A DNA stretch of 37,763 nucleotides, from the IMG/VR virus record IMGVR_UViG_2522572023_000009, one strand, 5' to 3'. This DNA comes from a virus (taxonomy: Duplodnaviria > Heunggongvirae > Uroviricota > Caudoviricetes). The position numbers were made by a program, and so were the translations under genes. How positions within the stretch are numbered: position 1 is the stretch's first letter; each line of letters opens with the position of its first letter. The notes beneath the pieces were generated by a model. That model was not told where the DNA came from, searched no databases, and saw only the letters and a program-made list of their open reading frames with translations. Shown piece by piece: positions 1,447-37,286 of the stretch.

Positions 1447-1533
1447 GCTGAAAAACATAACCCATAAAATGCTAGCTGTACCAGGAACCACCTCCTTAGC
1501 CTGTGTAATCTCCCTTACACGGGCTTATTTTTT
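1447..1533 (+). ncRNA. cyaR: CyaR (RyeE) Hfq-dependent sRNA; its 3' terminator overlaps the prophage attL core
   Basis: The sequence GCTGAAAAACATAACCCATAAAATGCTAGCTGTACCAGGAACCACCTCCTTAGCCTGTGTAATCTCCCTTACACGGGCTTATTTTTT matches my recollection of cyaR, including the CCACCUCCUUA seed region and a terminal hairpin with a U-run. It lies between yegQ and the P2-type element, as in K-12. Confidence 0.72.
1507..1533. repeat. attL core: 27-bp P2-type attachment core AATCTCCCTTACACGGGCTTATTTTTT
   Basis: An identical 27-mer recurs at 37260–37286, and the next 7 bp (ATGCATA) also match after one extra T on the right copy. It is the reverse complement of the P2 core as I recall it (AAAAAATAAGCCCGTGTAAGGGAGATT). 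Confidence 0.85.
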
Positions 1534-1595
1534 ATGCATAATCAATTGAAATAAAAGGATTTATTTCTGGTCACGTCCACACATTGACCACATCG

Positions 1596-1630
1596 ACAAA
1601 AAAGCCCCTCGACTGAGGGGCTTTCTGTTT
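1596..1630 (-). terminator. Rho-independent terminator downstream of ogr (possibly bidirectional)
   Basis: A 7-bp stem AGCCCCT/AGGGGCT (1603–1609 and 1616–1622) with a 6-nt loop is flanked by an A-run on the plus strand (a U-run on the minus-strand transcript) and by TTCTGTTT on the other side. Confidence 0.6.
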
Positions 1631-1634
1631 GTAA

Positions 1635-1853
1635 TTACATCCACATAATTTGCTGCCCTGATGGCAACGGGTGCGGCCTTACGGCGTGGACTTCTCCCGG
1701 CTTCACGATATATCGCTGTACCGACTCATAAGTGATTAATGTGGCGCTGCAATTCACGTTCTGACACTGGTGATAACGCTCTTTTGTCGTGTCAGTGATA
1801 TAGCGACTTGTACGCGCATGTGCGGCATGCTGGCATAAAGGACAATGAAACAT
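1635..1853 (-). CDS. ogr: Ogr, zinc-finger activator of late transcription, 72 aa
   Basis: The internal Met of the track ORF gives MFHCPLCQHAAHARTSRYITDTTKERYHQCQNVNC..., a Cys4 zinc finger matching P2 Ogr in length and sequence. Confidence 0.9.
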   Translation of the reverse strand: MFHCPLCQHAAHARTSRYITDTTKERYHQCQNVNCSATLITYESVQRYIVKPGEVHAVRPHPLPSGQQIMWM

Positions 1854-1934
1854 CGCGAGCACCTCTTCCGGTTTTGTTGATGGTGCCATTTTAGTTAATT
1901 TATCCTTATAAAACAAACAGATAAAACAAAAACA

Positions 1935-3098
1935 TCACTCATCATCTTCTGTTTCGTACTCCACATCAGAAAGCCTGACCTCAAGCTCCAAGGACGTCGT
2001 GAAGCCGCTATTATTCAGAAAATGTGTCACCTTAGTGATTGTCCAGTCCTGCTCGTCTATGACGCGCTTAAAGCCTGACACTTTAACCGGTGTTTCCGTG
2101 TAAATATCTGCCCGACCGGTAGCCAGGCTGATGGAGAACTCCGCCACACCCCGTTGCAGTTTATCCCACTTCGCCTGAGCGGCGCGCATGGCCTGCGCTT
2201 TCGTGGCATATACCGTAGTCAGGGCAAAAACGTTGTCAGCCTCACCGGCCATGTATTCACCTTCGCGCGCTTCCGGTACTTTAGGCGCTTTCTTCTGCCT
2301 GACCGGTTTCGCTTTCGGGTGCTCCAGTGCGCGCAGGTGTTTCTCTTTCTTTTTGCGTTTCAGTTTTACCTTCTGCTTTTGCGGCTTCGGGTCTTTGGTG
2401 TGTAACCACTTTGCCGTTACGCCGGTATAGGCTCCACGGTCAGCAATCGCAAAATGATGGCGGTCGCCGTCGCTGCGGGTTATGGTGACCTGCGGGATTT
2501 TTTTACCGCTGGCCGTCACCCCCTGCCCCGCTTTGAGAAACAACAGTTTTCCCATTTTTACCGACACCTCACCGCCGTTGCGTTCTGCAAGACGGGTCAG
2601 GAATTTCGCATCAGACTCCTGCGACTGGTCGATGTGCGGGATTTTAATTCCGGCCAGTGACGGAGCGACACTGGCTTCCAGCTTATTACGGGAGGCTATC
2701 GCCTCAACAATCGCACCGAGCGTGGTGTCATGCCATGAGCCTTCACGGCGGGAATTGAGCGTCCCGCGAAAATCTGCACTCCGGGCGCGGATGGTGACCA
2801 CATCCGGTGCGCCCCGGTGTTCAACCTCATCAACGGTAAATTTCCCTTTGCATACCAGGGCAAAACCTTTCCAGCCGATATACACCGTCAGGACAGCGCC
2901 ACGAACCGGCAGCCCGACCTGCCCGTCGGCATCGTTCAGTTCAATATCAAGCTGGTCAGCCTCAAAGCCCCGGTTATCCGTCAGGGTCATGCTCATCAGA
3001 CGGTCGCTGATATTGCCGGTAATATCCCTGCTGTCGAGCATCAGCATGTAATCCGGCGTCAGCGTACTGCCTGCATCAAATGTCAGTGCATCCAGCAT
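1935..3098 (-). CDS. D: gpD tail protein, 387 aa
   Basis: Length and position (between ogr and U) match P2 gpD. Confidence 0.85.
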   Translation of the reverse strand: MLDALTFDAGSTLTPDYMLMLDSRDITGNISDRLMSMTLTDNRGFEADQLDIELNDADGQVGLPVRGAVLTVYIGWKGFALVCKGKFTVDEVEHRGAPDVVTIRARSADFRGTLNSRREGSWHDTTLGAIVEAIASRNKLEASVAPSLAGIKIPHIDQSQESDAKFLTRLAERNGGEVSVKMGKLLFLKAGQGVTASGKKIPQVTITRSDGDRHHFAIADRGAYTGVTAKWLHTKDPKPQKQKVKLKRKKKEKHLRALEHPKAKPVRQKKAPKVPEAREGEYMAGEADNVFALTTVYATKAQAMRAAQAKWDKLQRGVAEFSISLATGRADIYTETPVKVSGFKRVIDEQDWTITKVTHFLNNSGFTTSLELEVRLSDVEYETEDDE

Positions 3099-3577
3099 TA
3101 TCCCGCCCCCGTCATACCCGTGAATTTAGTCGCCATACTGCCAGCCTTACCGATGAGCGATTCCGCCTGTTTACCGATATCGCCATAAAGCGCGGCCAGT
3201 GATTCATCAACGCGGGTGAGCGACAGCGTAAAATCAATTTTCCGGGGTGTGCCGTCTGCAAAGAAAATACTCCCTGTTTCACTCACCCTGCTGATGACAT
3301 ACATGCCGTAAATCATGCCGGTGCCATCCAGCAACGGCCACGCCCGGCCTTCATCTGCCATCAGCCTGAGCGTGGTCATCGTCAGCTTTCCGCCGGTCAG
3401 TTCAGGATAAAGCACACCGGCAAGCGTGATGTTTTCCTCACCCACACCGAGAAACTGAAAGGCATCCCGTTTGCCGATACGGGAATTTGACGGCCAGCGA
3501 TAATCTGATTCACGCTGCATGGTCTGGTGTGGCAGCGTCTGGCGCATAAAAACAAACATACCTAACGCGAGCATCAT
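3098..3577 (-). CDS. U: gpU tail protein, 159 aa
   Basis: Length and synteny match P2 gpU. Confidence 0.85.
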   Translation of the reverse strand: MMLALGMFVFMRQTLPHQTMQRESDYRWPSNSRIGKRDAFQFLGVGEENITLAGVLYPELTGGKLTMTTLRLMADEGRAWPLLDGTGMIYGMYVISRVSETGSIFFADGTPRKIDFTLSLTRVDESLAALYGDIGKQAESLIGKAGSMATKFTGMTGAG

Positions 3578-3591
3578 TTTTCGTCACCTCC

Positions 3592-35570: not shown

Positions 35571-35619
35571 AAGCCCGTATTTTACCGGGCTTATTCTGTG
35601 ACAACCAGGATAAAGAGAT

Positions 35620-35967
35620 TTACAGCATGGTCAGGGAGGTCAGCAGCCGCTTAGGCTGTCGCCAGTCGATACCTTCCAGCAGCATCGCCAGCTGCGCCTG
35701 CGTAAGGAACACTTTGCCATCACGGGCTGACGGCCAGGCGAAGCGCCCACGCTCCAGCCGTTTGGTCAGGAGGCACAGCCCGTCACCGGTGGACCACAGC
35801 AGTTTAACCTGACTGCCGCTGCGGCCCCGGAAAATGAAAACATGGCCGGACATGGGATCGTCTTTCAGCGCCGTCTGTACTTTCGCAGCCAGGCCGTTGA
35901 AGCCATTTCTCATATCGGTGATACCGGCAACCAGCCAAATTTTGGTCCCGGAAGGTAACGGGATCAT
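35620..35967 (-). CDS. tnpB: IS66-family accessory protein TnpB (orf2), 115 aa
   Basis: [30 protein letters not shown]... is typical of IS66 orf2. Confidence 0.85.
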
Positions 35968-36365
35968 CGCTTCAGTTCCTGTATCAGCAGAGTCAGGAGC
36001 TTTTCGCTGACATTGCCATTGAAGCGGAGCGTCCCGTGCCGGAACGTTACCTCACAGCTGATACTGAGGGTTTCCGGGTCCTCTGCGAGCGATTCTGGCT
36101 GTTCGGCAGCTGCATCGAGAGTCACAGGAAGTAGCTGGGGGCTCTCTGAAGAAGGTAATAGCAGCTTTCCCTCGCGCCATTGTTGTCGCCATTTGAACAA
36201 CAGATTGGCGTTAATGCCATTTTCAAGAGCAAGTTTTGAGATGGATATCCCGGGTTCACAGGAGGCAGCAACGAGCTGCTGTTTAAATTCGGGAGGATAA
36301 TTAGGGCAGCCTTTTCGCCTGCCGGGAGTCACATTTTTCTGCATATCTGACACTTTGGTTCCCAC
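35964..36365 (-). CDS. tnpA: IS66-family accessory protein TnpA (orf1), 133 aa
   Basis: Position and size are typical of IS66 orf1, and it overlaps orf2 by 4 nt. Confidence 0.8.
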   Translation of the reverse strand: MGTKVSDMQKNVTPGRRKGCPNYPPEFKQQLVAASCEPGISISKLALENGINANLLFKWRQQWREGKLLLPSSESPQLLPVTLDAAAEQPESLAEDPETLSISCEVTFRHGTLRFNGNVSEKLLTLLIQELKR

Positions 36366-36436
36366 TACTTATTTGGTGGACACCACTTTGTCTAATTCGT
36401 CAGATTCTGACCAGACGGTTCAGGCTGTACGCTTAC

Positions 36437-36444
36437 AAAATAAC
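36437..36444. repeat. 8-bp target-site duplication AAAATAAC (right copy)
   Basis: Matches 33987–33994. Confidence 0.85.
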
Positions 36445-37180
36445 GAATGACCCATGCGCATTTCAAATCACGAAATCCCTTATCAGCCAGTACTGCGCCA
36501 CCCGAAGAAGTCAGGGTATTAAACCTTCGAGTATCAATCGTGATTTAACATGTATTAGCGGCATGTTTACAGCCCTGATTGAAGCGGAGTTATTCTTTGG
36601 TGAGCACCCTATCAGAGGGACAAAGAGGCTTAAGGAGGAAAAACCAGAAACAGGCTATCTCACACAGGAAGAAATTGCCTTACTGCTTGCAGCACTTGAC
36701 GGCGACAATAAAAAGATTGCGATTCTTTGCCTGAGTACAGGAGCACGTTGGGGAGAAGCAGCTCGTTTGAAAGCAGAAAATATCATCCATAACCGCGTCA
36801 CGTTTGTTAAAACGAAAACAAACAAACCACGCACCGTCCCGATCTCAGAGGCTGTTGCCAAAATGATCGCGGATAACAAACGAGGTTTTTTATTCCCTGA
36901 TGCTGATTACCCTCGCTTCAGACGAACAATGAAAGCAATAAAACCGGATTTGCCAACGGGGCAAGCCACACATGCACTAAGGCACAGCTTTGCCACTCAT
37001 TTCATGATTAATGGAGGAAGTATTATCACGCTACAACGGATACTAGGTCACACGCGGATTGAGCAAACTATGGTTTACGCTCATTTTGCGCCAGAGTACC
37101 TTCAGGACGCCATTTCTCTTAATCCGCTAAGAGGTGGTACTGAGGCCGAGAGTGTCCACACAGTGTCCACAGTAGAGTAA
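36445..37180 (+). pseudogene. int: int, C-terminal fragment carrying the catalytic domain
   Basis: The frame continues ...NDPCAFQITKSLISQYCATRRSQGIKPSSINRDLTCISGMFTALIEAE... through HALRHSFATHFMINGGSIITLQRILGHTRIEQTMVYAH, which is the tyrosine-recombinase R...HxxR...Y pattern. The N and C fragments join in frame to 337 codons once the IS and one target-duplication copy are removed. Confidence 0.85.
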
Positions 37181-37259
37181 CGTTTAAGGGCTTTCAGTGG
37201 TAATTTATGCCGCTCAAACCCGCATTGTACCGTTGAAAGCCCCTACTGGTGACACCCTA

Positions 37260-37286
37260 AATCTCCCTTACACGGGCTTATTTTTT
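37260..37286. repeat. attR core: 27-bp P2-type attachment core, identical to attL
   Basis: AATCTCCCTTACACGGGCTTATTTTTT, about 80 bp downstream of the int stop. Confidence 0.85.

Follow-up and report, generated by a model that had tools for sequence, protein, structure and literature searches.

A P2-type prophage of Escherichia coli O145:H28 with two recent gene lesions and cargo in the usual accessory slots

P2-like prophages carry swappable defence cargo in fixed slots and frequently acquire disabling mutations, and this overall pattern is common and already described. Work on their hotspots has revealed a cos-proximal defence system between gpA and gpQ, secondary hotspots within the tail genes, and frequent pseudogenes (Rousset et al. 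2022, PMC9122126; Moura de Sousa et al. 2026, PMC13586616). Among 1,511 P2 elements, 98% contain at least one pseudogene, and defective P2 elements retain near-identical defence genes (Moura de Sousa et al. 2026, PMC13586616). Here we describe a P2-type prophage of E. coli O145:H28 contained in the virus record IMGVR_UViG_2522572023_000009, whose whole stretch of 37,763 nucleotides is referred to as the window. This prophage also has a putative defence system in the cos-proximal gpA-gpQ interval, and it shows no categorical difference from the elements described previously. Another close counterpart is the P2 remnant of E. coli BL21 with retron Eco1. Like the present prophage, it is of P2 type, presumably non-mobile, and has retained AT-rich cargo, among it a DUF6216 (orf30-like) gene. 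The binding and silencing of the cargo by H-NS/StpA is a feature of BL21, where one of the three H-NS peaks is at the DUF6216 gene and the repression of this gene is relieved in a delta-hns/delta-stpA background. Much of the BL21 element has been deleted, whereas the present prophage is complete save for two lesions.

Based on the observations described below, we suggest that the element is very probably a P2-species phage that was recently disabled and that carries ordinary accessory cargo. The phage would have integrated at the cyaR site between yegQ and yegR with its cargo already aboard, and the 2007 Belgian O145:H28 outbreak lineage would then have gained two knock-outs. One is the insertion of ISEc8 into int, which would make Int-dependent excision impossible and lock the prophage in place, and the other is a 1-bp deletion that would truncate the endolysin K. 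That the remaining genes for virion, replication and regulation look intact would be due to the youth of the lesions and not to selection. The cargo loci would be ordinary P2 accessory slots, in which the cos-proximal A-Q hotspot (holding old and tin in P2) carries lmuA-lmuC-lmuB, the S-V slot carries P2's orf30, encoding a three-helix inner-membrane protein, and the G-FI slot carries a mobile gene pair that may be of phage-exclusion or abortive-infection type, with its soluble all-helical protein as sensor or regulator and its small membrane protein as effector.

Identity of the prophage and disruption of int

The chromosomes of the E. coli O145:H28 strains RM12761 (NZ_CP007133.1, 2625549-2663311) and RM13516 match the window with 100% identity; both strains originate from the 2007 Belgian ice-cream outbreak. 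The 27-bp att core of phage P2, AATCTCCCTTACACGGGCTTATTTTTT, matches at 27 of 27 positions at both ends of the element (Table 1). Between these ends, from 1507 to 37286, a BLAST comparison with P2 showed collinear homology with 96-97.5% nucleotide identity over the backbone. The left att core overlaps the 3' end of the small RNA gene cyaR, between yegQ and yegR, and thus the cyaR 3' end is the bacterial attachment target. As a side observation, the terminator end of cyaR is the P2 att core itself, and therefore the 3' end of the small RNA at attL is supplied by phage-derived sequence after integration.

When we searched the window with all 42 P2 proteins using tblastn, 38 were located, and fun(Z), orf91, tin and old were absent. 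Alignments were whole-length and ungapped with 89-100% amino acid identity for 34 of the 38, the exceptions being C, Cox, H and Int; the alignment of the A protein covers 755 of 761 residues. The element is therefore a P2-type (Peduovirus) prophage. It shares with phage P2 (Peduovirus P2, NC_001895) the gene order, the att core, the cos site, the accessory slots and orf30. On the contrary, it carries a two-gene Vpar_1526 module in place of Z/fun and a Lamassu system in place of orf91/tin/old, its C repressor, Cox and the tip of tail fibre H differ from those of P2, its int is interrupted by ISEc8, and its K is frameshifted.

The backbone has a GC content of about 0.55-0.60, with dips to 0.35-0.39 at 8501-10000, 0.33-0.41 at 15001-16000 and 0.30-0.34 at 25501-28500. 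Two of these three loci differ from P2, namely 8449-9941, which replaces Z/fun, and 25252-28923, which replaces orf91/tin/old. Promoter and terminator scans of the three loci gave signals no better than those in shuffled sequence. Based on these comparisons, the anatomy given by a first-pass annotation of the DNA was accurate throughout: the prophage with its exact boundaries, an int disrupted by an insertion sequence, a frameshifted K, otherwise apparently intact capsid, tail, replication and regulatory genes, and three AT-rich loci at the FI-G, V-S and Q-A junctions.

The int gene is split at about codon 91-93. P2 int DNA aligned to 33472-33995 and resumed at 36437 (BLAST), and the intervening element has the gene set, the terminal inverted repeats and the 8-bp target duplication of the IS66-family ISEc8. 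It contains three IS66-type genes (tnpA, tnpB and a transposase), its terminal repeats are GTAAGCGTACAGC, and the target duplication AAAATAAC is intact at 33987-33994 and 36437-36444. The disruption is one clean transposition into codon 91-93. The same arrangement was limited to RM12761 and RM13516. Since the insertion splits int, the prophage is predicted to be unable to excise.

Contents of the three accessory slots

All three AT-rich loci had been taken in the first-pass annotation as cargo and as the likeliest places for undescribed biology. The description as accessory cargo is supported; the FI-G and Q-A loci replace P2 genes, and the V-S locus is P2's own orf30. With regard to undescribed biology, V-S is canonical, Q-A is a catalogued Lamassu system, and FI-G is the only uncharacterised cargo locus, although the LmuA effector with Tyr in place of Lys is to a lesser extent also new ground. 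The proposed comparison of the slots with related prophages showed that E. coli C325 has the same three loci, and that P2 has the same gene at V-S and different ones at FI-G and Q-A.

The FI-G locus encodes a 70-aa membrane protein and a 270-aa helical protein. The latter matched NF045477 with 179.3 bits against a cut-off of 45, and PF28206 is precomputed on all 31 of its relatives. Its disordered N-terminus contains STIIQVAGS, which resembles GGIVIQVGG in the 70-aa protein. This LPO_1073/Vpar_1526 family is small (31 clusters at 90% identity), and the locus was found in 4 of 5,426 E. coli genomes, while a search of 50,697 phage records gave no match. When we examined 14 loci, the pairing was kept in every one, with the small membrane gene directly upstream and ending at or just inside the start of the large gene; the 70-aa partner shows 48-76% identity among the four sequences aligned. 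The 14 loci span three phyla, Gammaproteobacteria, Campylobacterota and Fibrobacterota, and include Providencia, Photobacterium, Citrobacter, Salmonella arizonae, Motilimonas, Thorsellia, and metagenome-assembled genomes (MAGs) of Campylobacterota and of Fibrobacter (26% identity). In Thorsellia anophelis, the pair (L011, 9808-10789) lies in a non-P2 prophage, with DnaC-like replication genes on one side and the genes for the large terminase and the portal on the other, indicating that the module travels as a moron in unrelated phages. The Citrobacter and E. coli TUM14664 loci adjoin integrases, and one locus stands in an integron-like cassette array. The module is mobile and self-contained.

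The function of this module has to be considered from several sides. First, its position is that of P2 fun(Z), which confers T5 exclusion; both occupy the G-FI slot in the same orientation opposite to the late operons, and both are AT-rich and non-essential. There is no sequence relationship between them, and fun(Z) is a single 528-aa protein whereas the present locus encodes a pair. Second, some of the neighbours point in the same direction: the Providencia locus is flanked by Gabija-like OLD-TOPRIM and UvrD genes and a YobI ATPase, the Photobacterium locus by an AAA_15/21 and HNH pair (Septu-like), and weaker hints come from an HATPase_c_3 protein or an FRG-domain protein beside other loci. 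Because of the slot and some of these neighbours, a defence role is plausible, if somewhat less than probable. Third, several observations weigh against such a role. Clear defence neighbours were present in only 3 of the 14 loci (L006, L007 and L008), several loci lie amid housekeeping genes, neither protein matched a profile in PADLOC-DB v2, and no structural relative of the module was found among solved folds.

About evenly balanced, in our judgement, is the reading that the module serves something other than anti-phage defence, such as membrane stress or lysogenic conversion, a toxin-antitoxin-like addiction pair, or a superinfection-exclusion factor of the envelope. Most of the non-phage loci, which lie amid housekeeping genes or in the integron-like array, are consistent with this, as are the lack of a defence-model match and the finding of the namesake Vpar_1526 in Veillonella membrane fractions; on the contrary, it accounts less well for a module that occupies P2's slot for the T5-exclusion gene, adjoins Gabija-like and Septu-like genes in two genera, and occurs inside another prophage. 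More tentatively, the pair could be an undescribed two-component anti-phage or abortive-infection system of phages and other mobile elements, a possibility that we regard as rather unlikely as a whole. In such a system of phage-exclusion or abortive-infection type, the 270-aa helical protein would act as sensor or regulator of infection and control the 70-aa effector, possibly via the IQVGG-type strand motif of both proteins, and the single-pass 70-aa protein would disrupt the membrane or block DNA entry. We found no trace of the module in those supplementary tables of Rousset et al. 2022 (PMC9122126) that were consulted, and a literature search for LPO_1073 and Vpar_1526 yielded solely a Veillonella membrane proteome list. 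Since it is compact, strictly paired and without annotation or defence-database entry, the module is a cheap candidate for phage challenge.

The Q-A locus (25252-28923) contains three co-directional genes, and based on their order, lmuA-lmuC-lmuB, we assign it as a type II Lamassu. Its components are those of this family: an SMC/Rad50-like LmuB, a small LmuC between the two larger genes, and a LmuA effector with a helical C-terminal domain. LmuB contains Walker A (GKST) at residues 40-43, a central CPTC at 386 and Walker B (LIVFDE) at 604; the central CPTC is reminiscent of the Rad50 zinc hook. In known Lamassu systems, an LmuA1B2C1 complex senses DNA ends and releases LmuA, which then forms a tetramer and cleaves DNA, and the infection is aborted (PMC12663957; 10.1101/2025.06.23.660979). 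By analogy with the solved systems, the LmuB2-LmuC-LmuA complex encoded here would recognise an infecting phage by its DNA ends or replication intermediates, and freed LmuA would oligomerise into an active PD-(D/E)xK-type nuclease, resulting in abortive infection.

Detailed comparison with the type II systems of V. cholerae (DdmABC) and S. enterica revealed both likeness and difference. The gene order, the SMC/Rad50-like LmuB, and the arrangement of LmuA with a nuclease-fold N-terminal and a helical C-terminal domain are common to all. Sequence similarity to the solved proteins is undetectable, and the present LmuA is shorter (302 aa versus 355-372 aa). Searches of the PDB with the LmuA and LmuB sequences gave zero matches, and LmuA is tied to solved LmuA only by fold comparison, in which the modelled fold matched FokI, V. 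cholerae LmuA (9nxx) and S. enterica LmuA (9hqx). LmuC contains a hydrophobic stretch at residues 32-50, and Rousset et al. flagged '1 TM in protein 2'; solved LmuC is soluble and HTH-like (helix-turn-helix-like). Residues D39, E43, Q53, C54 and Y55 are invariant in the LmuA family, followed by K73, D77 and K80 on the next helix. While V. cholerae LmuA has the catalytic K57, the present protein has Tyr (Y55) at the position expected for Lys, giving the motif D39/E43...Q53-x-Y55.

Two points stand against a straightforward defence function of this operon. First, LmuA is without the canonical catalytic Lys, Q53-C54-Y55 being invariant in 42 relatives, and nuclease activity is therefore not assured. 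Second, the exact operon is listed by Rousset et al. 2022 (PMC9122126, Table S5B) as system no. 51, 'AAA_13/DUF3732', with 79 occurrences in the P2 gpA-gpQ hotspot, and its sequences are absent from the cloned-systems supplementary table of that paper, so it was catalogued and apparently not tested there. For the same reason, we rejected its identification with the system of 'three hypothetical proteins' that Rousset et al. tested against P1. The operon was present in 32 of 5,426 complete E. coli genomes, always with at least 99% identity and always adjoining gpA. This Lamassu variant with a Tyr-for-Lys LmuA is common in P2 hotspots, and we found no record of its testing.

The V-S locus is occupied by orf30, whose 98% identity to its P2 counterpart led us to reject a recent acquisition of this cargo. 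Hydropathy analysis predicted three transmembrane helices (residues 5-31, 106-132 and 219-241). Of 5,426 complete E. coli genomes, 464 carry the gene, and an exhaustive phmmer search of 1.84 billion representatives gave 31 matches, including about 17 full-length relatives at 17-33% identity. The family conserves a D-x-Q-L-F...NGINV...DA motif and two cysteines. DUF6216 (PF19723), to which the family may be distantly related, was matched by 4 of 18 distant full-length relatives with a best E-value of 8.7e-7, and Orf30 itself gave no match; none of the family matched PADLOC. One of two substitutions that Orf30 has acquired in the RM12761 lineage, L62P, falls within the conserved Q-L-F motif, suggesting that this cargo gene may be impaired. 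A role in exclusion at the membrane would be a guess.

Reality and age of the lesions

The second lesion is a deletion of one base in K, which has 497 bp instead of 498 bp; the remainder is 100% identical to P2 K at the amino acid level, and RefSeq likewise marks the gene as frameshifted. When we examined 1,234 complete E. coli genomes with this K segment, the deletion was carried by two, both from the Belgian outbreak (RM12761 and RM13516). Reads from three platforms, 454, Illumina (about 60 million pairs) and PacBio, went into the assembly of RM13516, and RM12761 is an independent isolate with its own assembly. Because the multi-platform assembly and the independent one share the base, we are confident that the deletion is real. 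An artefact of assembly or base calling, which would leave a prophage locked in place yet lytically competent, is improbable: the deletion does lie in a run of G (GGG to GG) and both genomes come from one laboratory and partly from 454 data, but the run is just 3 nt long, RM13516 was polished with the Illumina reads, a separate isolate has the same base, and the other O145 genomes of that laboratory have an intact K sequence. With the deletion taken as real, the prophage is probably unable to lyse its host, since K is frameshifted, and with int split as well it is predicted to form no plaques.

The frameshift also generates a 455-aa open reading frame (ORF; 18223..16856, minus strand), which joins K residues 1-120 to LysB via an alternative frame that is open across lysA. 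In this fusion frame, P2 has a stop four codons upstream of lysB, and the RM12761 prophage is without that stop. We rejected the ORF as a real gene and regard it as a by-product of the frameshift. Separately, O145:H28 genomes of the US lineage (e.g. RM13514, RM12581 and RM9872) have a P2-type K segment at about 4.7-4.9 Mb, and in RM12761 and RM13516 it is at about 2.64 Mb, in the yegQ/yegR prophage.

The age of both lesions was revealed by E. coli C325, an isolate from the human gut in Spain. In C325, the yegQ/yegR site is likewise occupied by this prophage, at 99.9% identity and with all three accessory loci, and its int (337 aa) and K (498 bp) are intact. Over the prophage and short flanking stretches, about 33 substitutions distinguish the two copies; 11 of them, five in K and six synonymous ones in X and L, cluster in a recombination-like patch across K, Y, X and L (18047-18855). 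Each copy also has a 1-bp indel of its own: RM12761 the K deletion, and C325 an insertion at window-equivalent position 18231, where the holin gene Y has its 3' end; RefSeq annotates this Y gene of C325 as partial. When P2 was used as the outgroup, seven substitutions were derived in the RM12761 lineage since the split from C325, at window positions 1737, 8227, 14879, 15181, 15244, 17568 and 18227. They lie in the genes for Ogr, FI, V, Orf30 (L62P and G83E), LysA and Y, and all seven are non-synonymous. Such a 7:0 ratio is very unlikely under the purifying selection typical of functional genes and unremarkable under neutrality, and it thus gives no sign of selection on the virion genes. Based on these observations, the lesions are private to the RM12761/RM13516 clone and very recent, representing fresh decay rather than selected retention, and the virion genes are still intact because the lesions are too young for decay.

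Here, we need to consider that some points weaken this interpretation. The count of seven to none is small and P2 is an outgroup from a recombining phage group, the K frameshift is known from two assemblies of one laboratory, and both immobilisation and defence are deduced from sequence for the RM12761/RM13516 lineage. The anatomy, the two lesions with their recency and the assignments to families are shown directly; every activity proposed here is deduced. Nevertheless, domestication, toward which the first-pass annotation had leaned and in which the host would select for a locked-in prophage as a platform for accessory functions with virion genes still useful, for example in helping P4-like satellites or in a tailocin-like role, is highly unlikely: the structural genes are all full length, the literature describes defective P2 elements whose defence genes are conserved, and the Lamassu locus is 100% identical to the C325 and PSUO2 copies, but the lesions are restricted to one outbreak clone with an intact twin in C325, the derived substitutions are non-synonymous without exception, as relaxed constraint predicts, and a broken K would provide no lysis to a satellite. 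In the preferred reading of a phage only recently disabled, RM12761/RM13516 and C325 form a matched pair that differs essentially by int::ISEc8 and the K deletion, in which the earliest steps of prophage decay are datable and observable.

Backbone genes, tail fibre and immunity region

The coordinates of the features described above and of the remaining backbone genes are summarized in Table 1.

Table 1. Features of the prophage and its attachment site (positions in the window)
Feature	Position	Strand	Basis or remark
cyaR (RyeE) small RNA gene	1445..1530	+	Rfam RF00112, 100.7 bits vs gathering score 47
attL core, 27 bp	1507..1533		identical to P2 attP core and to 37260-37286
ogr and F tail operon (D, U, T, E/E', FII, FI), all full length	1635..8237	-	tblastn vs P2 proteins 95-99%, ungapped; RefSeq
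FI-G gene 1, 70 aa; one transmembrane helix (9-27), Lys-rich linker, IQVGG motif (GGIVIQVGG)	8687..8899	+	hydropathy, locus comparison
FI-G gene 2, 270 aa, all-helical, LPO_1073/Vpar_1526 family	8874..9686	+	overlaps gene 1 by 26 nt
V operon (V, W, J, I, H, G)	10028..14913	-	tblastn vs P2 proteins
P2 orf30, 261 aa	14997..15782	+	98% amino acid identity to P2 Orf30 (tblastn)
O operon (O, N, M, L, X, Y, K pseudogene, lysA, lysB/C, R, S)	15854..22053	-	tblastn vs P2 proteins
K endolysin pseudogene	17727..18223	-	alignment to P2 K; 1-bp deletion (GGG to GG) at ~17863/17864
Terminase P and portal Q	22227..25033	+	99.7% and 98.5% amino acid identity to P2
cos site, 19 nt	25204..25222		matches P2 cosL/cosR ends; intact, between Q and cargo
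lmuB, SMC/Rad50-like ATPase, 673 aa	25346..27367	-	PADLOC LmuB PDLC03863, 1.1e-98, residues 1-669
lmuC, 154 aa	27369..27833	-	PADLOC LmuC PDLC03871, 2.3e-23
lmuA effector, 302 aa	27847..28755	-	PADLOC LmuA, 9.4e-30; N-terminal restriction-endonuclease-like and helical C-terminal domain
Early/replication region (A, orf83-80, B, orf78, cox)	28878..33601	-	tblastn, RefSeq
C repressor	33302..33601	+	tblastn, RefSeq
int 5' fragment	33717..33994	+	RefSeq, BLAST vs P2
ISEc8 (IS66 family), 2,442 bp	33995..36436	-	RefSeq annotation; terminal repeats, target duplication
int 3' fragment (P2 Int residues 91-337, 99.6% identity)	36437..37180	+	tblastn
attR core, 27 bp	37260..37286		att core search

Differences from P2 were also observed in the immunity region (32905-33601), where C is 65% and Cox 84% identical to the P2 proteins while the flanking genes are 97-100% identical. 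This contrast points to an immunity type different from that of P2 on a P2 backbone. In the tail fibre, H departs from its P2 counterpart over the C-terminal half and G retains just 90% identity, suggesting that the receptor specificity is a different one. The H gene also contains a 132-bp (44-aa) tandem unit in 3.5 copies with 89% matching (11486-11947, minus strand).

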